Positions 24,308-50,489 of a stretch of DNA of 64,000 bases are shown here, one piece after another. Source of the DNA: Gemmatimonadota bacterium (lineage in GTDB: Bacteria > Latescibacterota > UBA2968 > UBA8231); NCBI GenBank assembly GCA_038153405.1, contig JAYOYH010000001.1, positions 128,156 to 192,155 on the forward strand, given 5' to 3'. The notes under the pieces were generated by a model that was not told the DNA's origin, made no database searches, and was given only the letters and a program-made list of their open reading frames with translations. Each line of letters opens with the position of its first letter. The first letter of the stretch is position 1. The position numbers and the translations under genes were made by a program.

Positions 24308-25483
24308 TTAGCTCGTCGTCGGTGCTGCGCTGGCAACCCGCAGCGCATCGGCAAAGAATTTCGTCGACCAGTTGAGGATGGCATGTGGCACGTAGGCACC
24401 GCCAATGGGAAAGGACGAGGGCAGCCCGCCGCGAATGCCGGGGTGGCGCGCGCGAAGAGATTGGTGCGTTTTGAGGCGATCGACGAGGGCGTGGGCAATT
24501 CGGTGCAGCGGGCTGCTAGGCGCATCGCCCAGGGCAAAGAGCACGATGGCCAGTTGGGCATTGCCCGTCAGGCACATGTGGTTGGCGCGTCCGCTCCACG
24601 CTGCATCGAGTGCCGCCGGCACAAAGCCGGTCGTGCCCATCTGCGGTTGGGCCTGCAGAAGGCCGTCGACGGCCCGCTGCACGGCGCTGCGGACGGTGTG
24701 GCCGTCGCCGCTGAGCAGGCGCGCGCATTCGAGCAGTCCGCGCAGCGTGTAGGCGATGGTGTGGGTGATGGGATATTGGCCCGGTTGCAGGGCCATGTGG
24801 GGAAAAAAACCGCTGCCCTGTTGCAGCGGAAGTAGCCAGTTGACAAAGGCCTGTGCCGCGCGGCGGTAGCGCTCATCGCCGCACAGGTCAAAAACCTCTA
24901 AGAGCGGCCAGGCCACCCGTGCGTGGTAGGCGCGGGGTGCGTCCAGATACGTATGGCGCGTCCATTTACCGTCGTCATCCTGCACGTCGAGCAGCCAATC
25001 GGCCGCGCGCCGCGCCGCATCGAGGTAGCGCTCATCGCCTGCGTGGCGATACAGCGCAGTCCACCCCAAAATGACCTGGCCCGTATTGAAGACGATGGGA
25101 TAGTCGTTGAGGCCGATGCCGCCGCGCACAGCGCCCGAGGGCAATTGAATGGCGATTTCCCAATTGCCCATGCGCTGGGCGCGTTCGATGAAATGGGGGT
25201 GGTTTGGGGAGCATGCCAGTAGGGTCGGTATAATGTAGCCCGTTGTTTCCGGATAGGGAGGCATCCAACCGCGGCGCATAAAATAGCCCGCCGAAACGCC
25301 CTGACCGCCGCCGGCATCGTGGGCGCGACACAGCCAGTCGAGCGCGCCCTGCAGGTGCTCGCTGGCGTCGTGCACCTGGTGCTGTCGGTCGGGCCGCAAG
25401 AGCAGAGGCCAGTGGCCTGGCCTTCCCACCAGATGGCCACACTCGTAGAGTGCTATGGCGAGTTGCTTGGCGGTTAGCAGCAT
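24308..25483 (-). CDS. Uncharacterised alpha/alpha-barrel protein of the kind seen in polysaccharide loci
   Basis: WLCRAHD..GGVSAGY, PYPETTGY, and repeated WLxxxQxxxG motifs (QLPSGA, QDDDGKW, QQGSGFF). Confidence 0.65.
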   Translation of the reverse strand: MLLTAKQLAIALYECGHLVGRPGHWPLLLRPDRQHQVHDASEHLQGALDWLCRAHDAGGGQGVSAGYFMRRGWMPPYPETTGYIIPTLLACSPNHPHFIERAQRMGNWEIAIQLPSGAVRGGIGLNDYPIVFNTGQVILGWTALYRHAGDERYLDAARRAADWLLDVQDDDGKWTRHTYLDAPRAYHARVAWPLLEVFDLCGDERYRRAAQAFVNWLLPLQQGSGFFPHMALQPGQYPITHTIAYTLRGLLECARLLSGDGHTVRSAVQRAVDGLLQAQPQMGTTGFVPAALDAAWSGRANHMCLTGNAQLAIVLFALGDAPSSPLHRIAHALVDRLKTHQSLRARHPGIRGGLPSSFPIGGAYVPHAILNWSTKFFADALRVASAAPTTS

Positions 25484-25586
25484 GGGAGATCGCGTATAAG
25501 AAGGGTCAATGCACTTTGCTATGATTGGAATAACATAATATTTTTCAGTGTATTATGACAGAGCACTTAGCCCCCCAGGGCGCTGT

Positions 25587-26516
25587 ATGATGAGGGAATT
25601 AGCGCGGCGCGCACTGCCGGAGTCGGCCTACTTGCTCGGGCGGCGCTGGGCGCGCCGCCTGCGTCGTCGGGCGGTCCTGCAGCCGCTGGGAGAAGACGAA
25701 TTACTGGAGGTGTTGCGCGGCGGGCTGGGCGTGCGCGAGGGCGAATTGGCCATGGTTCACAGTTCGGTCGACCACCTGCAGCTCGGCTTTTCTTTTACCC
25801 GCTTGTTGCCCCTGCTGCGCGGTGTCGTCGGTGCTGAGGGCACGCTGCTCTTTCCCGCCACCCACTTGCTCGAACGGCCCGAGTGCTGGCTCGAACGCGG
25901 CGAGGTATTTGACGTGCAGCGCGCACCGACTTCGATGGGCCTGTTGCCCGAATTGGCGCGCCGTCAGGCCGATGCCGCGCGCAGCATGCATCCCACCCAT
26001 TCGGTCGTAGCAGTGGGGCCATTGGCCACTAGCCTAGTGGAAACGCATCACTGCGATATCTATCCGTGCGGCGAGCAGAGTCCCTATTATCAGGTGGCTG
26101 CGCGCGGCGGAACGATTTTAGGTTTAGGTGTCGATACAGATGTCCTCACGCTGGTTCACTGCATTGAGGATATTTGGCGCGCGCGCTTTCCCGTGGCTAC
26201 CCACCGCGAGCGCATTTACGAGGCCAGCGTGCGCACGTCAGCAGGCGAAGAGCATACGGTGCGCACGCTGGTGGCTCATCCGCGCATTCGCTGGCGTCGC
26301 ATGCGCGAATTTATGCGCCAGCACGTGGGCAGCGAAATTTGCCGACGCATAGAAGTGGCGGGCCGACCCTTTTATCGGGCCGATGCGGCCGGGCTAGTGC
26401 AGCGCATGGAAGTGCTGGCCGAGCGCGGCATTACGATGTACCGGCGCGGCATCTACCGGGGGCATGCGCTGGAGCCGCTCCTGAGTCGCTGGGCAGAAAA
26501 ACTGGAGGAGAGATGA
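25587..26516 (+). CDS. AAC(3)-family acyltransferase
   Basis: MVHSS, GTLLFP, MGLLPE, RSMHPTHS, LGV and TLVHCIE motifs; alternative start at 25548. Confidence 0.85.
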   Translation: MMRELARRALPESAYLLGRRWARRLRRRAVLQPLGEDELLEVLRGGLGVREGELAMVHSSVDHLQLGFSFTRLLPLLRGVVGAEGTLLFPATHLLERPECWLERGEVFDVQRAPTSMGLLPELARRQADAARSMHPTHSVVAVGPLATSLVETHHCDIYPCGEQSPYYQVAARGGTILGLGVDTDVLTLVHCIEDIWRARFPVATHRERIYEASVRTSAGEEHTVRTLVAHPRIRWRRMREFMRQHVGSEICRRIEVAGRPFYRADAAGLVQRMEVLAERGITMYRRGIYRGHALEPLLSRWAEKLEER

Positions 26517-26806
26517 GTGCAGATGCGGGTGTGGTAGAGCAGGTCGTCGCGGCGGCCATCGCGGAACTCAACTTGCAGCGCGGCGCCGATGAAAAGCTCG
26601 GCGATGGTCCCAGTGCCCTGCTTTTTGGCGATGGCGGTCCCCTCGACTCACTGGGATTAGTCCTGCTCATTGCCGAATTGGAAAATGGGCTTGAACAGGC
26701 CTGCGGCGTGCGCATCAATTTGGCCGACGAAGCGCTATTGGAGGCCGAAGATATGCCTTTCCGCAGCGTTGGAACGCTGCAAAAGTACTTGATTAACTTG
26801 CCGTGA
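26513..26806 (+). CDS. Acyl carrier protein
   Basis: 97 aa, acidic, LFG.GGPLDSLGLV Ppant site, PFRSVGTL; ATGA-coupled to the AAC(3) gene. Confidence 0.88.
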   Translation: MSADAGVVEQVVAAAIAELNLQRGADEKLGDGPSALLFGDGGPLDSLGLVLLIAELENGLEQACGVRINLADEALLEAEDMPFRSVGTLQKYLINLP

Positions 26807-26816
26807 GGGCACCGCA

Positions 26817-28484
26817 TTGACGCAGATCTGTTTACTCGTTTCCGACTTTAATATCGCTCCGTTGGCCGGCTATTTACGCAACGATGAGGAGCTGCCCATC
26901 GTCGATGTGGTCGAGGCACCGCACGGCGTCGTCGAACCCGTTTTTCTGTCCGAGCACTCCGTGTGGCAGCGCGTGCCGGTCGACGCAGTCGCCCTGGTAT
27001 GGACGCGCCCCGAAGCCATCGCACCGTCCTTTGTCCAGCTACTGCGCGGTGTCCCGCCCCCGGCCGATGTGCTCGAGGGGGAAGTCGACCGCTTTGTCGA
27101 TTTATTGCTCGGCGCTGGGCCGCGCCTGCGCGGCCTATTGGTACCGCTGTGGACCCTGCCTCCATCGGCGCGGGCCGCCGGCATCGGCGATTTTAAGGTG
27201 GGGGGGTGCCAGTGGGCGGTGCAGTGCATGAACGCGCGTCTGGTGCAACGGGCGAGTGAGAGCGCGCTGCTGCACGTACTCGATGCGCAGACGGTGCTGG
27301 CCGCCACCAAGGGGCGCAGCTACGACGCCAAGCTATGGCATAGGGGAAAAATCGCCTTTGCCAATCCCGCACTGCGCCAGCTCGTCGGCGAAGTGAAGGC
27401 CGCGCTGCGCGCCGTGGACGGTCGAGGGAAAAAGCTCGTCGTAGTGGATCTGGACGATACGCTGTGGGGTGGTAGCGTGGGCGAGGTTGGTTGGCAGCAT
27501 CTCAAATTGGGTGGCCACGACTACGTCGGTGAAGCGCACGTCGAATTCCAGCACGCGCTCAAGGGGTTGGCCCAGCGCGGCGTGCTGTTGGCCATTGCCA
27601 GCCGCAACGAAGAGGACGTGGCGCTGCAGGCCATCGATAGCCATCCCGAGATGGTGCTCAGGCGCGGCGATTTTGCCGCCTGGCGCATTGGCTGGGGCGA
27701 TAAGGCGGCCAGCGTTGCCGCGCTGGTCGAAGAGCTCAACATCGGTCTGCAGGACGCGGTCTTTATCGACGACCACCCGGCCGAGCGCGCCCGCGTGCGC
27801 GAGGCGCTGCCCGAGGTGCTGGTGCCCGAGTGGCCGGCCGATCCGGCCTTCTACGCCGAGGCGCTGGCGGGACTGCGCGCCTTTGACAGCGTGGGGTTGA
27901 GCCGAGAAGATCTCGAGCGCACGCGGCTCTATGCCGACGAGCGCAGGCGCCGACAAGCGCGCCATGCCATTGTCTCGCTAGATGATTGGTTGGCCGGCCT
28001 GCAGATGGCGGTGCGCGCCGAAGCGCTGGATGGGGCAAGCCTTGAACGGGCTGCGCAACTGTTGAATAAGACCAATCAGATGAACCTGCGCACGCGCAGG
28101 CTCAGTGCCGAGCAGCTGGCGGCGTGGCCGCAGGAAGGGCGGCGCGAGATATGGACCTTTCGCGTGGCCGACCGCTTTGGCGATGCTGGGCTGTGCGGAC
28201 TGGTGGGGCTGGCCGCCGAGAAGAGCGGCGGATCGATTTGCGATTTCGTGCTCAGCTGCCGCGTCATGGGCCGTGGGGTAGAAGAAACGCTGCTGCACTT
28301 TGCCTCGCTGCGCGCGCGCGAAATGGGCTGGCAAGAACTGCTGGTCGAGGGGTTGCCCACGCCCAAGAACAAACCCTGCCTCGACTTTTTTGCCCGCGCG
28401 CTTGGCTCGGATACCGATGCGGCGTTGACTTGGTCTATCTGCGGCGAATTTGCCCTGCCCAACCACGTTCAACTGCACGCGTGA
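26817..28484 (+). CDS. FkbH-like HAD-IIIC protein (glyceryl-ACP forming)
   Basis: KLVVVDLDDTLWGG, ASRN, FIDD, KTNQMN, DRFGDAG and LSCRVMGRGVE motifs. Confidence 0.92.
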   Translation: MTQICLLVSDFNIAPLAGYLRNDEELPIVDVVEAPHGVVEPVFLSEHSVWQRVPVDAVALVWTRPEAIAPSFVQLLRGVPPPADVLEGEVDRFVDLLLGAGPRLRGLLVPLWTLPPSARAAGIGDFKVGGCQWAVQCMNARLVQRASESALLHVLDAQTVLAATKGRSYDAKLWHRGKIAFANPALRQLVGEVKAALRAVDGRGKKLVVVDLDDTLWGGSVGEVGWQHLKLGGHDYVGEAHVEFQHALKGLAQRGVLLAIASRNEEDVALQAIDSHPEMVLRRGDFAAWRIGWGDKAASVAALVEELNIGLQDAVFIDDHPAERARVREALPEVLVPEWPADPAFYAEALAGLRAFDSVGLSREDLERTRLYADERRRRQARHAIVSLDDWLAGLQMAVRAEALDGASLERAAQLLNKTNQMNLRTRRLSAEQLAAWPQEGRREIWTFRVADRFGDAGLCGLVGLAAEKSGGSICDFVLSCRVMGRGVEETLLHFASLRAREMGWQELLVEGLPTPKNKPCLDFFARALGSDTDAALTWSICGEFALPNHVQLHA

Positions 28485-29596
28485 AAACAGTCGCTCACTG
28501 CATATCGCCGTACCTACAAACGGCGGGCCCGTGGATCTACGAGCAGATCAATCGTGCGGCGCGCTACCGACCGATTGTGCTGACTCAGGGGGCGATTAAC
28601 CTGGATGCCTACCCGGTAAAGACGCTATACTCCGCCGAGCGTTTTTCCCCTGTGCAGCGGTTGTGCAATCGCCTGTGGCGCAGAACGCGCAACGAATACC
28701 TGTTTTACGCACCGATCATAGAGCGCGAGGGCGCCGCGCTGCTGCACGCCCACTTCGGCTACGAAGGCTGCCGCGTGCTGCGCGCCCAGCAGCGCAGCCG
28801 ACGACCGCTGCTGACGACGTTTTACGGGGCGGACGCGACGGAGTATCCGCGCTATGCGCGCTGGATGCGGCACTACCATCTCCTCTTTCAGCGCGGCGCG
28901 CTATTCCTGGCCGAGGGAGGTGCTATGGCTGAGCGCTTAGTTGCGCTGGGTTGTCCAGGCGACAAGGTGCGGGTGTGGCACCTGGGAGTCGACGTAGAGC
29001 GCATAGGCTTTGTCGAGCGGGAGCGAGGAGAGCGCGTGCGCCTGTTGATCTGCGCTGGCTTCAAGGAGAAAAAGGGCATTCCCCATGCTCTGCGCGGCCT
29101 AGCAAAGGCCCTGCATATCGCCCCTTTTGACTACGTCTTAACGCTGATTGGCGACGGCGAAGACCGCCGTGAGATCGAGCGGCTAGTCGATGCGCTGGGG
29201 CTGCGCGACCACACCGTGTTCCGCGGCATGCTACCCTATGCGCAGGTGGTCGACGAACTGCCGCAGCACGATATTTTGCTGCAGACCAGCATCACGGCAG
29301 CCAACGGCGATGGCGAAGGAGGGGCACCGGTTGTACTGCTGGATGCGCAGGCCTCGGGCATGCCGATCGTCGGCTCGACGCATGCCGATATTCCCGAATA
29401 CGTGCGCGATGGCGAGAGTGGTTTGCTCGCCGCAGAGGGCGATATCGAGGGCATAGCCGAGCGCATCGTCGACTTGGTAGCGCGCGCGCGGGAATGGCCG
29501 GCTATGGGGCGTGCCGGACGCCAGCACGTCGAGCGCCAATACAGCGCCCGGCGCCAGGTAGAGGCGCTGGAGGCCATTTACGACGAACTGCTCTAG
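28481..29596 (+). CDS. Glycosyltransferase family 4 (WcaL-like)
   Basis: GTG start at 28481; LHAHFG, FKEKKG, GDGEGGAPVVLLDAQASG and HADIPE motifs. Confidence 0.9.
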   Translation: MKTVAHCISPYLQTAGPWIYEQINRAARYRPIVLTQGAINLDAYPVKTLYSAERFSPVQRLCNRLWRRTRNEYLFYAPIIEREGAALLHAHFGYEGCRVLRAQQRSRRPLLTTFYGADATEYPRYARWMRHYHLLFQRGALFLAEGGAMAERLVALGCPGDKVRVWHLGVDVERIGFVERERGERVRLLICAGFKEKKGIPHALRGLAKALHIAPFDYVLTLIGDGEDRREIERLVDALGLRDHTVFRGMLPYAQVVDELPQHDILLQTSITAANGDGEGGAPVVLLDAQASGMPIVGSTHADIPEYVRDGESGLLAAEGDIEGIAERIVDLVARAREWPAMGRAGRQHVERQYSARRQVEALEAIYDELL

Positions 29597-32726: not shown

Positions 32727-32818
32727 CTGGCGAAGCGCGCTGCTAACGTGTGATAAAATAATTATAAAACAATAAATAACATGGTTTTAAGGGTTTTATA
32801 GGCGGTGTCTCATAGAGG

Positions 32819-41447: not shown

Positions 41448-44400
41448 GTGGAGGCAGAAATTACGCAGATGCAAACCTTCCGTAGCTTCAGGCGGGTAGC
41501 GGCCTTTGACCGCTGCCCTTCCGCTCTGTATTCGATTGCTTCCGCCGGATATGCAATCGACTTAATACCCGTACCCAATCCACCTATTAGCGCAGCCGAG
41601 CGCGTCGTTCCACCGCTGCAAGAAGCCCGTCTCGTTGGACTGGCCGAGGCGCTAGCTGAAGTGGGGCGAGGGACCTATAGCGCCCTGCTGTGTTGGACGC
41701 TAGAAGATCTGCAGGCTTCGTCGGGCTGGGATCTGCCCAAAGTATTTGCCCCACAGTGCATGCTCTCGGAACTGGCCGGCGTCAGCGGTATGGCGCGGCT
41801 TCGAGCCCTCCAGCAAATCGCTCCTCTAATCGAGGGGGTTTCCCTCGTTTTTACATCCGATGCACAGCGCGAAAATTGGCTGAGCTCAGGGTCTGTCGTG
41901 CCCCTCGGCGTGGACGTCGACCGCGGCGTGAACTGGGCGAGTGATTGCGCCGAAATCGTTTGGACCGGCACGGATGCGCGCGAATGGGCCCTGCGCGAAG
42001 GACATGGGGTGCGCGACGAATTACTCGGTGGCCAAGTCGCAGGGCGCAAACTCGTGCTCGGTGCGGGCGAGGCGGAGACATGGGATGGTTGGTTGGCGAG
42101 TGTAGTGCAGGCGCGCGCGCTGCTGTGCACACCGTCCCCTGGCCACGCGTTGGGCTGCGATGTCTATGTCCTGACGGCGATGGCCGCCGGCATGCCGATC
42201 GCATCGGTCGAACACGACGCCTCGCCGATCGTCGACGGCGAGAGCGGGTATCTGTCCAACGACTGCGACTATCTGCGCGATCGGCTGTGCGCACTGCAGG
42301 GCGACGCCGACTTGGCGCGTCGCCTGGGCGCGCGCGGACGAGATCGAGTCGCTGCGCACTATAGCTTGGCCGCGAGTGCCGGTCGTTGGGAAACGCTGAT
42401 CGAAGCCATCGGCCAGCGGCCGAGCAGTGCCGCTATGGGCGCCCCTGCGCCGCGGGTGAGCATTGTCATTCCGCTGTACAACAAGGCGGAGTTCACGGAA
42501 AAATGCCTCTACGCACTGGCGGCCAACACCGGCGAAGATCCCGATTACGAGGTCGTGCTAATCGATAATGCCTGCAGCGACTGGACGCAGTACCTGCTGC
42601 TCGCTTTTGAAGGCGATGTAGAGATCGTGCGCAACGAGGAAAACATCGGCTTTGCTCGCGCCAATAATCAGGGGGCCGCATTGGCGCGCGGCGAATACGT
42701 GCTCTTTCTCAACAACGATACCGAGCCGTGTGCGGGATGGTTGGAGGCCATGGTGCAGTTGGCCGACGGCGACCCGCGCATAGGAGTCGTAGGCGCCAAG
42801 CTACTCTATCCGCAGACGGACACCGTCCAGCACGCCGGCTTGGAGATGGTCAACGGCGAGCCCCAGCACGTCTTTCGCGGTGCGGCGGCAAGCGACCCGC
42901 GCGTCTGTGCCACGCGCGATCTCGACATGGTGACCGGAGCGTGCATGCTGGTGCGGCGCTCGCTTTTTGAAGAATTGGGTGGCTTTGATGTGGCCTATCG
43001 CAACGGCGTCGAAGACGTGGATCTATGCCTGCAGGCGCGGGCGCGCGGCTATCGCGTCGTCTACTGCGCCGATGCTGTGGTGCGCCACCACGAGGGAACC
43101 AGCGAGGGGCGCTTTGATCACGTGCGCGATAATTTGCAGCGCTTCTTCGCCAAGTGGCAGGGCCAGTTCAACGCCGAAGGGGTCTTTATGGGAAGGCGCG
43201 CCGAACAGACCTCCCATCGCCAATCGCGCGCGCTGCGCGGCTATTGGGAAGGCCCTTTCTTTGTCTATTCGAGCCTGGCCCACGTCAACCGAGAAATGGC
43301 GTTGGCGCTGCTGGGGGGTGGGCAGTGCGAATTAGGACTGAAGGCCAGCGAAGACGATCAATTCAATCCCGGCGGCGATCTGCGCTATGCGCCCTTAGTT
43401 GCGCGCATGGGCCAGCCGTTAGCGGGGGAGGTTGATTTTCATCTGCGCCATCGCTGGCCGCCCGATGTCGGCAAGCCCGATGGGGGCAAGCTGGTGCTCA
43501 TCCAGCCGTGGGAGTACGGCCGTATTCTCAAGAGCTGGGTCGAGCCCATGCGCGCAAATGTGGATCAAATCTGGGCCTACACATCCTATGTGCGCCAGGT
43601 CTACATCGACAGCGGCTTTGATCCGCAGATGGTCAAGGTCGTTCCGCTCGGGGTCGATACTGCTCGCTTTCGGCCCGATATCAAACCCATGGTGCTGCCC
43701 ACGCAGAAGAGCTACGCCTTTCTCTTTGTCGGCGGCACCCTGCAGCGCAAGGGAATCGACTTGCTGCTGCGCGCCTACCGCAGTGCATTTTCGCCGCAGG
43801 ACGACGTCTGTCTGGTCATTAAAGACATGGGCACGAAAACGTTTTACCGCGGGCAGACGGCCGAGAGCGAAATTGCAGCGCTGCAGCGCGATCCCGACTG
43901 CGCAGAAATTATCTATCTCGACGAGGACCTACCCGAAGAGCAGATACCGAGCCTCTATGCGGCCTGCGACTGTTTAGTGCACCCCTACCGCGGAGAGGGC
44001 TTCGGGTTGCCGGTGGCCGAGGCGATGGCGTGCGGCCTTCCCGTAGCGGTGACGAAGGGTGGAGCCTGCGACGATTTTTGCAGCGAAGAAAGCGCTTTTA
44101 TGATTCCTTCGACTCGTCGACCGGTGCGCTTTCCCGAGGAAACGGTGGGACAGGCGTGGATGCTGGAAGCCGACGTCGAAAAACTGGGCGAAAGCATGCG
44201 CCTGGCCTTTGGCGACCCGGAACGTGGGCGCGCGATGGGCGCGCGTGGGGCGGAGCGCATTGCGCGCGACTTCACGTGGGAACGCGCTGCCCAGATCGCC
44301 CATCAGACCCTGTGTGAGCTGTGCGAGCATGCGCCAGAGGCCCCGCATACATCCGGTGCGCCGCGCATTGGCGTTGCTATGCCCAACGTCTCAACTGCGA

Positions 44401-45605
44401 GCGGTAGTGAGGCGAAAGTAGAGGGCGAAAACGAGGGGCCGCCCGTTGCGATCATCGCGCTGGGGGGGGGCGGTACTTCCGTATTCGAGGAGATAAGCAC
44501 GGCCTATGGCGGCGCTTCGTCGGGCTACGACGTCACTCTATCGCCCGAGGTTGGGTTGGGCGATCAGCTCGAGGTTATTCGCCAAAATGGCGACAGTGCC
44601 TTCTTCGTGCTTGTTGGCCGCGGTGCGCATATCGGTGGCCAAGCGCTGTGCCTGCTCATTGAGCATATGCAGGGCCAAGAAGACATACTCGTGGCCGAGC
44701 CCTCTCTGCCCGATTCGCCGCGCGGCGTTGGTCTGGAAGAAATCGAATGCGTGCGGGGTGACTTGGTCGTGTTGCGCTCGACCGGACTCGATGCGATCGG
44801 CGGCTTTGACCGATCCTTTGCCACCCTTGCAGCCATCGACGAGGCCGTGCGGCAGCTGCGCCGCCAGGGTGGGCGCGCGGTGCGCGTGCTGGAATGTCTT
44901 CTCGAACGGGCGGCCGAACCGACAGAGCTCGATGCGGCGGTTGAACGGGAGCGCGCCTCGATTGAAGCGCTCGACGAGGGGGACCGCCTGCGCGGTGACG
45001 GCGATCGCGCCGAAGCGCTTTCGGCCTACCGCCGCGCGGTCGAGCACAAGGGCAATTTTGTCGAGGCGATTATCGTGCTCGCATCTATGCTCATCGAAGA
45101 AGACTTGGCCGGCGAGGCCGTTGGCGTGCTGAAACATTTGGTGCACCTGGATACCGACTCGCATCAGGCGCACAACTACCTCGGTATGGCATATCACCGC
45201 GCCGGCGATCGCGCTGGAGCACGCGCCAGCTTTGAACGCGCCTATGAACTCAGCCCGAACCAGGTAGAGACGCTGGTTAATTTGAGCGTTTTTGAATGGG
45301 AAGAGGGGCACGCAGAAGCGGCGGTTAACTACCTTGAACAGGCGGCCGAGCTTGAACCAGACAATCGCGATGTGCTGGTCAATACGGCAGTTATGCAGGT
45401 GCAATTAGGTCACGGCGAAAGTGGCATGCGCTTGCTGCAGGAATATATCGACAAGAATGGATGGGATGCAGAAGCGGTGTGTATACTGGCCGGATGGGCC
45501 CTTCAGTTGGGCGACACCGCGCGCGCGCGCGCCCTTGCTGTGGACGTTTTGACACGGGATCCCGACTGCGCCGATGCGCGCGATATTCTGGAGAAGACCA
45601 GGTGA
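41448..45605 (+). CDS. Multi-domain glycosyltransferase: degenerate GT4, GT2, GT4, degenerate GT2, TPRs
   Basis: VSIVIPLYN/FLNNDT/GVEDVD (GT2), EGFGLPVAEAMACG (GT4), C-terminal TPRs; start may be ATG 41469. Confidence 0.85.
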   Translation: MEAEITQMQTFRSFRRVAAFDRCPSALYSIASAGYAIDLIPVPNPPISAAERVVPPLQEARLVGLAEALAEVGRGTYSALLCWTLEDLQASSGWDLPKVFAPQCMLSELAGVSGMARLRALQQIAPLIEGVSLVFTSDAQRENWLSSGSVVPLGVDVDRGVNWASDCAEIVWTGTDAREWALREGHGVRDELLGGQVAGRKLVLGAGEAETWDGWLASVVQARALLCTPSPGHALGCDVYVLTAMAAGMPIASVEHDASPIVDGESGYLSNDCDYLRDRLCALQGDADLARRLGARGRDRVAAHYSLAASAGRWETLIEAIGQRPSSAAMGAPAPRVSIVIPLYNKAEFTEKCLYALAANTGEDPDYEVVLIDNACSDWTQYLLLAFEGDVEIVRNEENIGFARANNQGAALARGEYVLFLNNDTEPCAGWLEAMVQLADGDPRIGVVGAKLLYPQTDTVQHAGLEMVNGEPQHVFRGAAASDPRVCATRDLDMVTGACMLVRRSLFEELGGFDVAYRNGVEDVDLCLQARARGYRVVYCADAVVRHHEGTSEGRFDHVRDNLQRFFAKWQGQFNAEGVFMGRRAEQTSHRQSRALRGYWEGPFFVYSSLAHVNREMALALLGGGQCELGLKASEDDQFNPGGDLRYAPLVARMGQPLAGEVDFHLRHRWPPDVGKPDGGKLVLIQPWEYGRILKSWVEPMRANVDQIWAYTSYVRQVYIDSGFDPQMVKVVPLGVDTARFRPDIKPMVLPTQKSYAFLFVGGTLQRKGIDLLLRAYRSAFSPQDDVCLVIKDMGTKTFYRGQTAESEIAALQRDPDCAEIIYLDEDLPEEQIPSLYAACDCLVHPYRGEGFGLPVAEAMACGLPVAVTKGGACDDFCSEESAFMIPSTRRPVRFPEETVGQAWMLEADVEKLGESMRLAFGDPERGRAMGARGAERIARDFTWERAAQIAHQTLCELCEHAPEAPHTSGAPRIGVAMPNVSTASGSEAKVEGENEGPPVAIIALGGGGTSVFEEISTAYGGASSGYDVTLSPEVGLGDQLEVIRQNGDSAFFVLVGRGAHIGGQALCLLIEHMQGQEDILVAEPSLPDSPRGVGLEEIECVRGDLVVLRSTGLDAIGGFDRSFATLAAIDEAVRQLRRQGGRAVRVLECLLERAAEPTELDAAVERERASIEALDEGDRLRGDGDRAEALSAYRRAVEHKGNFVEAIIVLASMLIEEDLAGEAVGVLKHLVHLDTDSHQAHNYLGMAYHRAGDRAGARASFERAYELSPNQVETLVNLSVFEWEEGHAEAAVNYLEQAAELEPDNRDVLVNTAVMQVQLGHGESGMRLLQEYIDKNGWDAEAVCILAGWALQLGDTARARALAVDVLTRDPDCADARDILEKTR

Positions 45606-48600
45606 GTAAAAAGAGGAAAAGCGCCCATCGCAAAAAGAGCAAGAAGGGCCAGCATGCCCCTGCGCCCCGCCTGTCGATTTGCGTGATTGCCCGCGATGAG
45701 GCCCGTTTCTTAGACGCCTGTCTGGCCAGCGTCGAGGGCCTGGCCGACGAGGTTATCGTCGTCGATACGGGTTCCGTCGACGACAGCAGAGAGACGGCGC
45801 TGCGTCGCGGTGCGCGCGTCTTTGACGAAGTCTGGCAGGACGACTTTTCGCACGCGCGTAACCGTGCGCTGCGCGAGGCCAGCGGCGCGTGGATTCTGGT
45901 AATCGACTGCGATGAGGTGGTGGCGCGCAGCGACCACGCCCGCCTGCGCGCGCTGCTGCGCGACGATGCGCACGGCGCGTATCGAATGACGACGCGCAAC
46001 TACAGCGCTGGCATTCAGCACGAAGGGTGGACGGCCTGCACGGGCGCCTATGCAGAAGAGAAGGTATACGGCGGATGGTTCCCTTCTACCAAAGTTCGCC
46101 TGTGGCGGCATCGCCCCGATGTGCAGTTTGAGGGCGTCGTTCACGAACTCGTCGAACCGTCGCTGCTGCGCGCACAGGTGTCTATCGGTGATTGCCACGT
46201 GCCGGTGCATCACTACGGCTACGCCGAGAAAGAACGCGATAGGGACCACTATGTACAGGCGGGAGAGCGCAAGGTAAGAGAAAATCCAAGCGATATGCGC
46301 GCCCGCTACGAACTGGCCATCGCCTATCGCAATGCCGGTCGTCAAGAAGATGCCCTCGCCAGTATTGACGCAGCTATAGCGGGTATGACGGCGGTCGATA
46401 GCCGGTCCCGCATATATGTGCAAGAAGATCTGGTGCTGCTGGTGCGCGCCGAAATCCTAACGCGCATGGCTCGCTTTGACGATGCGCTAGTGGCCTACGA
46501 CAGACTGTTGGAGCACTTTCCCCAATCCCACCAAGCCTATAATAATAAGGGCACGCTATTGGAGAGGGCGGGGCGGATGGGCGATGCGCGCTTGTGCTAC
46601 GAGCGCGCCGTGGCCATTGCACCCGACAACCGAATCGCGCGCGAAAATGTTGAACGCCTCACTCGGCGATATACGCTGAGCGCCTGCATCATCGCGCGCG
46701 ACGAAGCCGAACACATCGCGCGCTGTATAGAAAGCGCCTGTGCGGTGGCCGACCAAGTCGTCGTCGTCGATACCGGATCGCGCGATGCCACTGTCGAAAT
46801 CGCCCGGAGCTACGGCGTGACGCTGGGGCATTTTGCCTGGTGCGACGACTTTGCCGCCGCGCGCAATGCCTCGCTCGAGTTGGCCACCGGCGATTGGATT
46901 CTCTGGTTAGATGCCGACGATTATTTGCTGCCTGCCGATCGCGAGCGCATTATCCGCGCCAAGTCTCTGACCCCGGACGCAGGGCTCTACGCCACGCTGA
47001 TCAACGAGGGGGGCGAAGAAAATCGTTTTCGCCAGTTAAAGATGTTCCCCAATCGACCGGATATACGCTTTGCGCAACCCGTGCATGAAAATGTCCTCGC
47101 TGCGCTGCGCGGCGCCGACTTGGAACTGCGGCCAACGGATATTCAGGTGCGCCACACTCCTGAGAGCGACGCCGGAGAAATTGCGCGCAAGCAGGCCTAC
47201 TACGCCGATATTATGCGGCGCTGGCTGCGCGACCACCCCGACGATTGGGAAACGCACTTTCGCTTTGGCCACGTGCTCTACACGCGGGGCCAGCGAGAGA
47301 GTGCACTGGCGTTTTTTGCGCGCGTGCGCGAGGCTGGCGAGGCCGTAGGAGTTGCTGCGCTGCGCCTACTATCCTGCTCTTTTGCCGGTCGCTGCTTGCT
47401 CGAGGAGGGGCGCTACGACGAGGCGCGCGAAGTGCTTGCCGATGCGCTGTCCCTGCGTTCGGACGATGCGCTATCCCTGCTGTCAATGGGCGATGTATCG
47501 GTAAAAAAGGGAGATTATGCAGAAGCCGAGCGCTATGTGCGCGCCGCGCTAGCTGGCTGGCGCGATCCGCACTTTTCTCTCGACGCGAAGGCCTTCGACT
47601 ATGCGGCGCACTTTTTTCTCGGACAGGCGCTCAGCGGTCAGGGGCGCAACGAAGAGGCAATACGCGTCTTTGAGGAAGCCGATCGCATTGCGCCGGCCCG
47701 GTCGGAAGCGCGCCAGGCCATTGCCCTGCTGCATCAGGGCATAGGGCAGGGCGATAGGGGGCTGTATATTCGCCAAGCGCCCGAAGCCAACGCCGAACCA
47801 GAGCCTCTCTATCCCGACAGCAAGCTGAGTCTGTGCATGATCGTGCGCGACGAAGAGAAGCGGCTCGGGCGCTGCTTGGAAAGCGTGCGCGGCTTGGTAG
47901 ATCAAATTATCGTCGTCGATACGGGTTCGCAGGACGGCACGGTTGAGTTGGCCCAGCGCTTTGGCGCCCAGGTGAGCCACTTCTCTTGGTGCGACGACTT
48001 TGCCGCTGCGCGCAACGCCTCGCTGCAGCAGGCGAGCGGGGACTGGGTCATGTGGTTAGATGCCGATGATATTCTGCCGGCCGAATGCCACGATGCGATT
48101 CGGCGCCGCGTTGCAGGACCACGCAATAAGGCCTACTTCTTCGTATTGGACGATCAGGGCTACGAGAATGTATCCTGTTTGCAGATGCGCCTCTTTCCCA
48201 ATCGACCGGGCGTCCAGTTTGAGATGCCGGTGCACGAACAGGTCGCGCCTTCGCTGACCCGCCTGGGCGTCGATATGGTGCAAAGCGGTATTCGCGTCAT
48301 GCACACAGGGTATACGACCCCCGAGGTGGTAGCCGCAAAGAAGGATCGCTATCTAAAGATTATGGAGCGTTGGCTCGAGTCGCATCCCGAAGATTATATG
48401 GAGCGCTCGCACGTTGCGCTGACCTACTATTCTACCGGCCGACTCGAAGAGGCCGAGCAGGCCTATCGCCAAATCATAGAAGAAAGTTCGTGTTACGCCG
48501 ACTGCAATTGGGTGGTCTATACGACGGCGCTGCTCTTCCTGGGGCGAACCTACATGAAGATGGATCGCCTCGATGCGGCGCTCGAATATGTGCACAAAGC

Positions 48601-49723
48601 CGAAGAAATGGACCGCTCTTATATCCTTACGCAGCTCACGCTGGCCGAGATAGGGGCCAAGCGCGGCGATCATGCGGCCGTTATTGAGCGCGCCCGCACC
48701 GTAGCGGCCAGCCAACGGCAAATGACGTTCTTTCCCATCGATTACGAAGAGATCAACTACTCGGCAACCTTACTGCGCGCTCAGGCGCATCAGGCATTGG
48801 AGCAGTGGGATGACGCCATAGAGGCCTACCGCGTTGCGGCTTCGACGAACGCGTCCCAGCGCAGCGATGCGCTAGGTAGTCTGTACAATCTATATCGGCA
48901 ATTGGGGCAAATCGACGACGCGCGGGCGGCGCTCGAAGAGGCGTTGGCGATCCATCCCGAACACATCCAACATCTTTTCAATCTCGGCGTATTGGACCTA
49001 GAGGCGCGGCAGTTCGACGCGGCGCGCGCGCGCTTTGAAGAAGCCCTTGCACGACAGCCCGATTTTGCTCGCGCGTTGCTCAATTTGGGTTATATCGCCA
49101 AAGTGCAGGGTCGCTTGGATGATGCCGAATCGATCTACCGGCGCGCGATCTGCTGCGGCGGTGAGGGCATCGAAGCGCGTGCCAACCTCGCCCATCTCTA
49201 CGTAGAGATGGAACGCTTTGCCGATGCCGAACCGCTCTTTGCCCAAGTGCGTGCGCAGGAATCGGATCTGTTGGACATCGAGTTGGGGTATTTACTGGTG
49301 CTGGTGCACGCCCCAGAGCGAGACTGGCCGGTCTGCGTGCAGTTGCTGGATGGAATGGGCTCGCTGCTGGGCGATTGGTCCGTTGTCGAAGGCGATTTTT
49401 CCTCGCCAGAGCGCGCGGCCCCACGCGTGGGCGAACTCGGAGCGCTGCTGCTGCGCAATCAGATGAACAAGTGCGCCGAACTGGCGCTGTGTGCTGCCGT
49501 GCAGTTAAATGGCGGCCTATTGGATGTGCGCCGCCTGCTGGCCGAAGTGCTCTTTGTCGAAGGCCTGTACTGGAAGGCTGTGGCGCAGTTGGAGGTCGTA
49601 TTGACGGGCGAGCCAAACGACGAACAGAGCTTTCGCCGCCTGGGGGATTGCTACGCAAAACTAGGGGTTCACGAGGCGGCGCAGATGTGCTACGCGCGCG
49701 GCGGGGTAACTCATGAAGTATAG
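45602..49723 (+). CDS. Glycosyltransferase with three GT2 domains interspersed with TPRs
   Basis: Three LSxCxIxRDE...VVDTGSxD...WxDDFxxARN...DxD units starting near 45671, 46676 and 47825; GTG start at 45602. Confidence 0.9.
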   Translation: MSKKRKSAHRKKSKKGQHAPAPRLSICVIARDEARFLDACLASVEGLADEVIVVDTGSVDDSRETALRRGARVFDEVWQDDFSHARNRALREASGAWILVIDCDEVVARSDHARLRALLRDDAHGAYRMTTRNYSAGIQHEGWTACTGAYAEEKVYGGWFPSTKVRLWRHRPDVQFEGVVHELVEPSLLRAQVSIGDCHVPVHHYGYAEKERDRDHYVQAGERKVRENPSDMRARYELAIAYRNAGRQEDALASIDAAIAGMTAVDSRSRIYVQEDLVLLVRAEILTRMARFDDALVAYDRLLEHFPQSHQAYNNKGTLLERAGRMGDARLCYERAVAIAPDNRIARENVERLTRRYTLSACIIARDEAEHIARCIESACAVADQVVVVDTGSRDATVEIARSYGVTLGHFAWCDDFAAARNASLELATGDWILWLDADDYLLPADRERIIRAKSLTPDAGLYATLINEGGEENRFRQLKMFPNRPDIRFAQPVHENVLAALRGADLELRPTDIQVRHTPESDAGEIARKQAYYADIMRRWLRDHPDDWETHFRFGHVLYTRGQRESALAFFARVREAGEAVGVAALRLLSCSFAGRCLLEEGRYDEAREVLADALSLRSDDALSLLSMGDVSVKKGDYAEAERYVRAALAGWRDPHFSLDAKAFDYAAHFFLGQALSGQGRNEEAIRVFEEADRIAPARSEARQAIALLHQGIGQGDRGLYIRQAPEANAEPEPLYPDSKLSLCMIVRDEEKRLGRCLESVRGLVDQIIVVDTGSQDGTVELAQRFGAQVSHFSWCDDFAAARNASLQQASGDWVMWLDADDILPAECHDAIRRRVAGPRNKAYFFVLDDQGYENVSCLQMRLFPNRPGVQFEMPVHEQVAPSLTRLGVDMVQSGIRVMHTGYTTPEVVAAKKDRYLKIMERWLESHPEDYMERSHVALTYYSTGRLEEAEQAYRQIIEESSCYADCNWVVYTTALLFLGRTYMKMDRLDAALEYVHKAEEMDRSYILTQLTLAEIGAKRGDHAAVIERARTVAASQRQMTFFPIDYEEINYSATLLRAQAHQALEQWDDAIEAYRVAASTNASQRSDALGSLYNLYRQLGQIDDARAALEEALAIHPEHIQHLFNLGVLDLEARQFDAARARFEEALARQPDFARALLNLGYIAKVQGRLDDAESIYRRAICCGGEGIEARANLAHLYVEMERFADAEPLFAQVRAQESDLLDIELGYLLVLVHAPERDWPVCVQLLDGMGSLLGDWSVVEGDFSSPERAAPRVGELGALLLRNQMNKCAELALCAAVQLNGGLLDVRRLLAEVLFVEGLYWKAVAQLEVVLTGEPNDEQSFRRLGDCYAKLGVHEAAQMCYARGGVTHEV

Positions 49724-50489
49724 AGTGGTCTTTCGCGCGTGCGAGACCGTGGATGCCGTAAACCAATTGCCGCGCCCCTGGGGACTGGACAAGCGGCAAA
49801 CTATTTTACTGTCCTTTCGCTCGCTGTTGGCCAGTTTACAGGCGGCCGGCGTCGACTATGCGATGTATGTCGTCGAAGACGGTATCTCCGATGCAGTGCG
49901 CGGTGAACTCGAACGGAGCGCCGAGGCGATCTTTGCGACGGCCCAGTCCGGCGTGTGCGGTTCGCTGGCCAAGAGCTACGAGGTGGCCCTGGGCTTTGCC
50001 GATGACGACTGGGTCTACTTCTGTGAAGACGACTACTTACACCGCGCATGCTGCATGGAGTCGATAGATGAACTGCTGCGCGGTGCGCACACCTATTTAC
50101 AGCCCTATCAGCAGGGCCATCTCTACGTCCATCCGTGCGACTATCCCGACCGCTATATGCGCCCGGACCGCTATACGGGGCGCATAGACGATCGCTATAT
50201 GGTATTCTGCAGCGCTTTGTGCCACTGGCGCCAAGTGCCTAGCGCTACCTACACGTGGCTGACAAAGATTGGCACCCTGCGCGCGCAGTGGGCACTCTTC
50301 CGCGACAACCTCGATCACCACGCGCGCTTTGGCACCGGCGACCAGTATCTGGGAGAAGCGGTGTTCAAGCGCAGCAATGCCCTGTGCATTAGTCCCGTGC
50401 CGGGGCTGTCTACCCATTTGCATGAAGGGGTGATGAGTCCGCTGGTGGACTGGCGCGCCGAGGCGGCCCACTATCACGTCGTCGCTTAA
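49713..50489 (+). CDS. GT-A fold glycosyltransferase
   Basis: VVEDG, VYFCEDDYLH, DYPDRY and SPVPGLSTH motifs; coupled to the upstream GT. Confidence 0.7.
   Translation: MKYRVVFRACETVDAVNQLPRPWGLDKRQTILLSFRSLLASLQAAGVDYAMYVVEDGISDAVRGELERSAEAIFATAQSGVCGSLAKSYEVALGFADDDWVYFCEDDYLHRACCMESIDELLRGAHTYLQPYQQGHLYVHPCDYPDRYMRPDRYTGRIDDRYMVFCSALCHWRQVPSATYTWLTKIGTLRAQWALFRDNLDHHARFGTGDQYLGEAVFKRSNALCISPVPGLSTHLHEGVMSPLVDWRAEAAHYHVVA

Follow-up and report, generated by a model that had tools for sequence, protein, structure and literature searches.

A probable five-gene cassette for carrier-protein-dependent N-acylation of a surface amino sugar in a Latescibacterota genome

In a 64,000-nucleotide stretch of contig JAYOYH010000001.1 (positions 128,156 to 192,155, assembly GCA_038153405.1), here called the window, a gene for a protein with the fold of the AAC(3) aminoglycoside acetyltransferases is followed by genes for a stand-alone acyl carrier protein (ACP), an FkbH-like protein and a family 4 glycosyltransferase (GT4), which raises the question of what such an enzyme would be doing in this company. 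The answer that appears probable is that these genes, together with a divergent fifth gene encoding an (alpha/alpha)6-barrel protein, form a cassette by which one N-acyl group on an amino sugar of the cell surface is exchanged for another through ACP-dependent N-acylation. Close homologues of the proteins are labelled Ca. Latescibacterota in their source records.

The AAC(3), ACP, FkbH and GT4 genes are intact open reading frames (ORFs) on the plus strand, each with one terminal stop, and the tight coupling ascribed to them in a sequence-only reading of this DNA is confirmed: AAC(3) and ACP overlap at ATGA, FkbH and GT4 overlap at GTGA, and a gap of 10 bp separates ACP from FkbH. The gene order is kept in relatives from five genera. 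The four-gene module of that reading is thus real, but it is incomplete without the divergent barrel gene (Table 1), which had been missed. The barrel gene is present in all 15 cassette-bearing genomes of the family and adjoins the cassette in 14 of these, a contig end intervening in the other (G005), and it belongs with the AAC(3)-ACP-FkbH-GT4 module. No sigma-70 consensus was found in the region between the divergent genes, and a promoter and terminator scan performed no better than chance.

Table 1. Features of the cassette, with positions counted from the first nucleotide of the window
Feature	Position	Strand	Basis or remark
(alpha/alpha)6-barrel protein, 391 aa, uncharacterised 'YPETTGY' family	24308..25483	-	fifth cassette member
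Divergent intergenic region, 103 bp, between barrel and AAC(3)-fold genes	25484..25586	.	sequence; spacing alike across genus
Antibiotic_NAT (AAC(3))-fold N-acyltransferase, 309 aa, ACP-linked clade	25587..26516	+	PF02522
Stand-alone acyl carrier protein, 97 aa, Ser46 in LDSL	26513..26806	+	homologue alignment, PDB profile matches
FkbH-like glyceryl-ACP loader (predicted), 555 aa	26817..28484	+	TIGR01686 above cut-off
GT4 glycosyltransferase, 371 aa, resident family gene	28481..29596	+	domain match

The AAC(3)-fold protein matches the Antibiotic_NAT family at E 1e-37 and 130 bits (gathering score 25), has a Foldseek match to AAC(3)-IIIa at E 3e-20, and resembles AAC(3)-II/III/IV/VI/X, FrbF, YokD and BA2930 in its fold (TM 0.62-0.68 by query, 19-26% identity). 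The catalytic T188-x-x-H191-x-x-E194 is intact and corresponds to the T-x-phi-H-phi-x-E motif given for the family in the accessible parts of PMC8956665 and PMC5884680. It differs from these relatives in its position on a separate, ACP-linked branch, in a loop where HSSVD replaces the canonical HSSL[S/K]xxG, in its Arg-rich N-terminal helices, and in its scores against the resistance models, which are 81 bits where NCBIfam AAC_3 (NF033082) has a cut-off of 270, and 47-61 bits against subfamily cut-offs of 420-675, all of which are missed. The best PDB matches of the clade profile are FrbF, at the top, BA2930 and YokD, which are without aminoglycoside activity according to the accessible part of PMC8956665. 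These scores and relatives support the earlier claim that this is not a resistance enzyme, and a resistance role was rejected on the evidence of the cut-offs, the context and the tree. Met117 was considered as an ACP signature and dismissed because FrbF, BA2930 and YokD share 'MG' there. The clade contains 1,133 clusters at E<=1e-30, not all of them ACP-linked, and the other two AAC(3)s of the genome, both canonical in type, fall on the opposite side of the tree.

The product of the second gene has no Pfam match itself. It is acidic (16 D/E against 5 K/R), the serine of its LDSL motif is invariant in all 25 aligned homologues, 12 of which match PP-binding at E<=0.1, and the best PDB matches of its profile are D-alanyl carrier proteins (DltC) and ACPs, at E 4e-4 to 1e-3. 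To judge by its sequence, this small, acidic protein with an invariant DSL serine and similarity to solved carriers has the properties by which an ACP is recognised. The FkbH-like protein, which is single-copy in the genome, scores 266.6 bits against TIGR01686 (cut-off 146.65), and its haloacid dehalogenase (HAD) motifs D211-x-D213, S262, K296 and D318-D319, with C481 (SCR), are invariant in 24 of 24 aligned sequences. The accessible part of PMC7489565 describes the glyceryl-ACP chemistry of FkbH and ACP for polyketide synthase (PKS) homologues. As in the FK520 FkbH and tetronate Mad7/Mad8 systems treated there, an FkbH protein above its family cut-off, with HAD and Cys motifs intact, lies beside a stand-alone ACP; unlike those systems, the cassette has no FabH-like tetronate synthase, dehydrogenases or PKS, and the likely acceptor enzyme is the AAC(3)-fold protein.

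No linked PKS, FabH-like synthase or dehydrogenases were found in the window, and membership of a PKS glycerate-utilisation or methoxymalonyl operon was rejected on that ground. The genome, which is 93% complete, has one ketoacyl-synthase match, adjoining its own acpP-like gene, and no condensation domain; no link of the cassette to a PKS or non-ribosomal peptide synthetase (NRPS) was found, and the earlier description of the module as PKS-independent, with no PKS or NRPS, holds. In genome G030 there is an FkbH-ACP cassette (L021:7456-12847) with MaoC-short-chain dehydrogenase/reductase (SDR), a hexapeptide acyltransferase and Wzy, without AAC(3), in which a different acceptor enzyme would be served by the same loader.

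That the AAC(3)-fold enzyme is fed by the ACP, as had been proposed, is well supported by inference from loader swapping, gene linkage and a complex model, which all point there. In two metagenome loci of the same neighbourhood FkbH is replaced while the rest persists: in L094 the barrel gene is followed by AAC(3), ACP, SDR, AMP-ligase and GT4, and in L108 by AAC(3), ACP, an adenylation enzyme, GNAT and GT4. In G017 a TylF O-methyltransferase is inserted after FkbH. Linkage could be scored for 53 of 109 AAC(3) ORFs once 8 duplicate loci, and loci whose flanks were short, had been removed. An ACP lies within 3.5 kb of 45 of the 46 AAC(3)s with a non-canonical HSS loop (for the exception, a longer copy shows one at a distance of 5.8 kb), against 1 of 7 with the canonical HSSL[S/K/R]xxG, although this is to be read as a property of the clade and not as 45 independent tests, since the classes were defined post hoc and kin are not independent. 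FkbH is within 6 kb of 34 of the 46 ACP-linked AAC(3)s, and the remaining 12 mostly have AMP-ligase/SDR, FabH/SDR or LuxC/E loaders. In a quick tree the ACP-linked rows fall mostly on one branch (SH-aLRT 98), of whose 57 rows 44 have an ACP, 12 are short and 1 has none.

Modelling of the ACP-AAC(3) complex, which had been suggested as a check, gave a score of 0.70, where the best of three controls reached 0.01; of 157 solved complexes 116 attain the mark applied, as do 2 of 215 mismatched pairs. Model runs have at least 81% of contacts in common, with a partner predicted local distance difference test (pLDDT) of at least 85. The modelled ACP Ser46 sits on the HSSVD loop and contacts AAC(3) residues 60-62, 70 and 118-119; the HSS loop is presumably the coenzyme A (CoA) binding site of the AAC(3) fold. 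The model supports binding of the ACP by the AAC(3)-fold enzyme as a prediction.

The barrel protein is the most surprising lead, what is new being its formyltransferase fusions and an invariant Glu/His/Cys set. Its AlphaFold2 model (pLDDT 95) has an (alpha/alpha)6 fold with Z of 25-31 to unrelated families, including epimerases, GH88/105 and cyclases, at 9-18% identity; many (alpha/alpha)6 carbohydrate enzymes reach Z of 29-31, and none of these stands out. The families compared were GH88/105, AGE/cellobiose epimerase, terpene cyclase and GH127, with partial Pfam matches, and neither the fold comparison nor the atlas comparison gave a specific family. There are weak matches to terpene cyclase and AprG, the cyclase similarity being limited to the barrel repeats. 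Among 239 homologues E79 is conserved in 237, H241 in 239 and C304 in 238, and Y83, Y245, Q310, W372, K375 and D379 are near-invariant. Several near-invariant residues begin inner helices, and (alpha/alpha)6 barrels carry their active site at the starts of inner helices.

In a hand tally of long homologues (686-2000 aa) that took in the best 120 of 157, the barrel is fused to a formyltransferase in 49, an S-adenosylmethionine (SAM) methyltransferase in 33, GT4 in 13, ATP-grasp in 5 (by source name), GT2 in 4, and CE4, a sulfotransferase and Wzx in 1 each, with no barrel-AAC(3) fusion in that set. Four family genomes have the barrel without the cassette, and in all of them a transferase lies directly behind it: a formyltransferase in three (two by Pfam, one read from sequence) and a SAM methyltransferase in the fourth. 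In other loci a NodB/CE4-like deacetylase lies directly beside AAC(3); the CE4-like profile has no significant PDB match. As a free amine is required by formyltransferases and ATP-grasp ligases no less than by AAC(3), and as the NodB/CE4-like protein takes this place beside AAC(3) elsewhere (compare VimE-VimA and Cj1295, below), the barrel is a candidate for an amine-unmasking, de-N-acetylating enzyme, an assignment whose chances are somewhat short of even. The barrel family has 3,745 matches. Its members also occur in haloarchaeal glycosylation loci, as in L215 on Halobellus plasmid NZ_CP031312 (with aglF, sulfatase, methyltransferase and wecB), where they are annotated 'prenyltransferase/squalene oxidase repeat'.

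The distribution of these genes shows which of them are accessory. At E<1e-120 the AAC(3) clade is found in 15 of the 75 family genomes and in none of 92 other genomes searched in the phylum, while GT4 (E<=1e-40) is found in 45 of the 75 and operates without the cassette in about 30 genomes. Since GT4 is widespread and, where the cassette is missing, is usually found at the same site between rpiA/GNAT and def, GT4 is the resident gene, with the cassette as an accessory insertion ahead of it. The absence of the cassette from G007, of the same genus, is uninformative because the locus is at contig ends. Plasmid searches found no close cassette. Where GT4 occurs without the cassette it is often beside a sulfotransferase-like gene (no Pfam match; the label is read from a motif). 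This protein of about 300 aa, convergent with GT4 in cassette-less relatives (L193:13168-14109, with 9 ORFs like it spread over 8 further loci), carries the motif GMHRSGTS, which we take to be sulfotransferase-like, and it is possible that it provides an alternative decoration, with sulfation replacing acylation.

As to the acceptor, Wzx, Wzy, AsnB, WecB, sugar-transferase and other glycosyltransferase (GT) genes surround most of the distant ACP-linked homologues (L069, L090, L092, L096, L097, L100, L106, L137, L141 and L142) in a scan of 117 selected neighbours, a subset of the ORFs; in L091 and L095 no scanned glycan gene is nearby. In G017 a Wzx gene lies downstream of the barrel gene on the same strand. 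These Wzx, Wzy and GT contexts support the earlier proposal of a glycan acceptor, the chances being about even that the target is a Wzx-dependent or lipid-linked envelope glycan, considerably lower for a flagellin glycan, and lower again for anything else. The co-occurrence profile of Wzx was set aside as uninformative, as an orthologue of the orphan Wzx (L161:7273-8703; G000:C40:11272-12702) is present in 71 of 75 family genomes; the Wzx within the cassette operon of G017 is a second copy.

Dedication of the same chemistry to a flagellin glycan, as in Campylobacter jejuni, is rather unlikely, and the evidence that bears on it is mixed. FlgG is present in 14 of 16 cassette-bearing genomes, and adjacency of GT4 and flg genes is common across the family. 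Within genus g14 there is co-occurrence of the cassette (5/31) and FlgG (4/31), and in all five aflagellate genomes examined (of 26) there are separate clean losses of the cassette with GT4, of motE and of the flg genes, around which def, FGE and CBM9 are retained (L210-L214), but this co-loss is probably of one lineage and may be a single event. The C. jejuni flagellar locus contains cj1302 in an organism with glyceroyl-pseudaminic acid (Pse), and in the accessible part of PMC7099621 strain 12664, with a cj1302 pseudogene, has no di-O-methylglyceric acid (DMGA); strain 12661, where only cj1301 and not cj1302 is reported missing in that part, is nonetheless also without DMGA. On the other hand, G017 (2 contigs, 93% complete) has the whole cassette near Wzx with neither flagellin nor FlgG, and GT4 is retained in 17 FlgG-negative genomes, although one of these has flgF/flgG fragments (G159) and another flgF at a contig end (G162). 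The flagellar cluster has GT2/GT4-tetratricopeptide repeat (TPR) enzymes of its own, one of which was not found in five of five aflagellate genomes, four of them keeping GT4, in a search run without a positive control. When 13 flagellar queries were run on 74 loci, many of them short, there was no match in ACP-linked loci outside the family, the only matches being in L094 (a family-type locus), L143 (no ACP) and L125 (GT similarity). The flagellar target that had been suggested is thus not established, and the evidence on balance is against it. The flagellar cluster does open about 3 kb away, as had been noted, with flgF at 32805 lying 3.2 kb from the cassette, but the gap holds four opposite-strand genes (def, MotE-like, FGE-sulfatase domain and CBM9).

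It is improbable that the product is a small molecule or lipid, such as a glyceroyl-amino-sugar glycoside or glycolipid, and not a polymer decoration. Characterised FkbH/ACP pairs come from the biosynthesis of natural products (PMC7489565, accessible part), the top PDB match of the AAC(3) clade profile, FrbF, is a biosynthetic acetyltransferase, and the weak terpene cyclase and AprG matches of the barrel and the two loci without scanned glycan genes would be in keeping with this; yet the cassette has no linked PKS, NRPS, exporter or regulator, most of the long distant loci are Wzx/Wzy polysaccharide clusters, and the cyclase similarity is confined to the barrel repeats. Slightly less probable still is an ordinary acetyl-CoA enzyme, for resistance or sugar N-acetylation, with the ACP and FkbH feeding a different acceptor enzyme. 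The fold and the catalytic motif of the family (PMC8956665, accessible part) are there, and the solved members among the matches listed are all CoA-type or apo, but AAC(3) is translationally coupled to the ACP, scores far under every resistance-family cut-off, belongs to the loop class that is ACP-linked in 45 of 46 cases where the canonical class is in 1 of 7, and differs from the two canonical AAC(3)s across the tree in the same genome; the ACP docks at its HSS loop in the predicted complex, and no other acyltransferase is constant in the cassette.

Under the N-acyl swap that is preferred here, the single phosphopantetheinyl transferase gene of the genome would provide holo-ACP, and FkbH would use 1,3-bisphosphoglycerate to form glyceryl-S-ACP, as described for the PKS homologues in the accessible part of PMC7489565. 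The barrel would free the amine, for example by de-N-acetylating a nucleoside diphosphate (NDP)-N-acetyl sugar, which is the weakest step, with rather less than an even chance of being right. The His191/Glu194 dyad of AAC(3) would then activate the amine for attack on the ACP thioester, as the modelled docking would allow, and GT4 would transfer the N-glyceroyl sugar into an envelope glycan. The loader would determine the acyl group, relatives using other loaders or adding an O-methyltransferase.

Several points weigh against this scheme. The cassette has no amino-sugar biosynthesis gene, and as the amino-sugar genes of the genome (three DegT aminotransferases, two NDP-sugar dehydrogenases among those scanned, and an AsnB-like gene) are unlinked to it, the sugar cannot be named. 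GT4 need not use an acylated sugar, given the genomes in which it stands without the cassette. The fold neighbours of the barrel are epimerases and glycoside hydrolases, with no amidases; in the 120 fusions listed above the partner is a methyltransferase in 33, a GT in 17 and, in one case, a CE4 deacetylase itself; in L132 and L137 the CE4-like gene is found together with distant barrels; and the barrel is within 6 kb in just 6 of 22 ACP-linked rows outside the family. The loci used for linkage were collected with a profile derived from the cassette, and the loop classes were set after inspection of the data. The controls for the complex comprised neither the fatty-acid ACP of the genome (C19:63528-63770) nor the two canonical AAC(3)s, and a close cousin can pass such a comparison. 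The FkbH of the closest relative, G001, is frameshifted.

The resemblance to C. jejuni that had been pointed out is borne out in part. Cj1296/7 is described as an 'N-acetyltransferase' (PMC3068675), cj1302 has an fkbH domain, and the flagellin carries di-O-methylglyceroyl-Pse (PMC3068675 and the accessible part of PMC7099621); the AAC(3) and ACP assignments made for that locus are putative. Cj1295, for which the Discussion of PMC3068675 proposes prior removal of the acetamido group, is the sole gene tested, Cj1296/7 being in frame in neither of the mobility variants (Table 1 of that paper), and two strains are without DMGA, just one of them with a cj1302 pseudogene (PMC7099621, accessible part). 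The cassette shares with Cj1295-Cj1302 an N-acetyltransferase-like gene and an fkbH-domain gene, a predicted N-glyceroyl sugar product and a putative unmasking gene before them, and the O-methyltransferase of G017 parallels the O-methyls of the C. jejuni sugar. It differs in that the upstream partner is an (alpha/alpha)6 barrel where C. jejuni has the aminopeptidase-like Cj1295, and in that it has no pse genes, uses GT4 and occurs also without flagella.

A second system that follows the same logic is Wbp/Vim of Porphyromonas gingivalis and Tannerella forsythia, in which an amine is freed by a putative deacetylase (VimE), a small acyl group is added to it by a transferase (VimA), and a glycosyltransferase (VimF) is linked (PMC7468200, accessible part). 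Distant homologues of the cassette AAC(3) lie beside CE4-like deacetylases and AsnB, and SprA and a C25 peptidase are encoded by the host. VimA belongs to the FemAB/GNAT-type Ser/Gly transferases, whereas the cassette enzyme has the Antibiotic_NAT fold and a predicted ACP-thioester donor, and glyceroyl lacks the amine for sortase coupling. There is no CE4 gene in the window and no CE4 or FemAB in the cassette, the CE4-like seed has no match in the genome, and membership of Wbp/Vim was rejected for lack of a VimE-type CE4 or VimA-type transferase in the locus. Families similar to wbpA/B/D/E are scattered across the genome. A type IX secretion system (T9SS) anchor reading was dismissed: SprA is present in G000, G017 and G134, and as G134 has neither GT4 nor the cassette, neither is needed for T9SS.

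N-glyceroyl sugars decorate the flagellin of C. jejuni and the S-layer of T. forsythia, and for T. forsythia the genes for them are said to be something that 'remains elusive' (PMC6120980, accessible part) or 'a major challenge' (PMC5378307, accessible part). ACP-fed N-acylation in glycan loci is as a general idea not new, since ACP and fatty-acid genes have been described in flagellin glycosylation islands (PMC4875605, accessible part). A literature search with limited coverage of subscription journals found no test of FkbH, ACP or AAC(3) in glycan synthesis and no function assigned to the barrel. The cassette provides candidate genes for N-glyceroyl decoration and a minimal soluble four-protein system for reconstitution, and the barrel family gains a concrete functional hypothesis. 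An Antibiotic_NAT enzyme using ACP would widen the chemistry of its family, and would mean that PF02522 matches in metagenomes need not be resistance genes. A broader and rather doubtful suggestion is that of an unrecognised, widespread 'N-acyl swap' toolkit for surface glycans, made up of a Cys-His-Glu barrel de-N-acylase unrelated to CE4, an Antibiotic_NAT transferase using ACP and not CoA, and plug-in loaders (FkbH, AMP-ligase, FabH or LuxE); if true, it would provide a route to N-glyceroyl sugars that has been missing, and many genes now labelled 'AAC(3) resistance' or 'prenyltransferase/squalene oxidase repeat' would need re-annotation.

Further AAC(3) domains occur in fused form. The second AAC(3) of the genome (L003; G000:C4:37154-39811, minus strand) is fused behind a peptidase M28/DUF4910 domain in a protein of 886 aa and adjoins a cheV-like gene. 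Cj1295 is, we assume, a DUF4910 protein, and this fusion is a possible Rosetta stone for a pair of Cj1295-like protein and AAC(3). In P0074 and P0075, proteins of about 535 aa, AAC(3) domains are fused to PF03629 domains.

Within the flagellar cluster, positions 41448-49723 of the window encode two giant GT2(/GT4)-TPR proteins (1385 and 1420 aa), which are likely to be flagellin glycosyltransferases. They are followed by an unannotated ORF of 258 aa (49713-50489) and then by three flagellins, the genome having 9 Flagellin_N matches.

In G001 (L005/L031, G001:C2:94262-95935) the FkbH frameshift is near residue 466 and splits off the conserved Cys481 region, being either a real pseudogene or an assembly error; FkbH is also split in L104, as is the barrel in L114. 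A second variable slot is flanked on one side by a 1,850-aa C25 peptidase (PorU-like) and on the other by a polytopic membrane protein without annotation (L024, L176 and L204), and it contains the full cassette in G017, GT4 alone in G023, and the barrel with a methyltransferase in G008.

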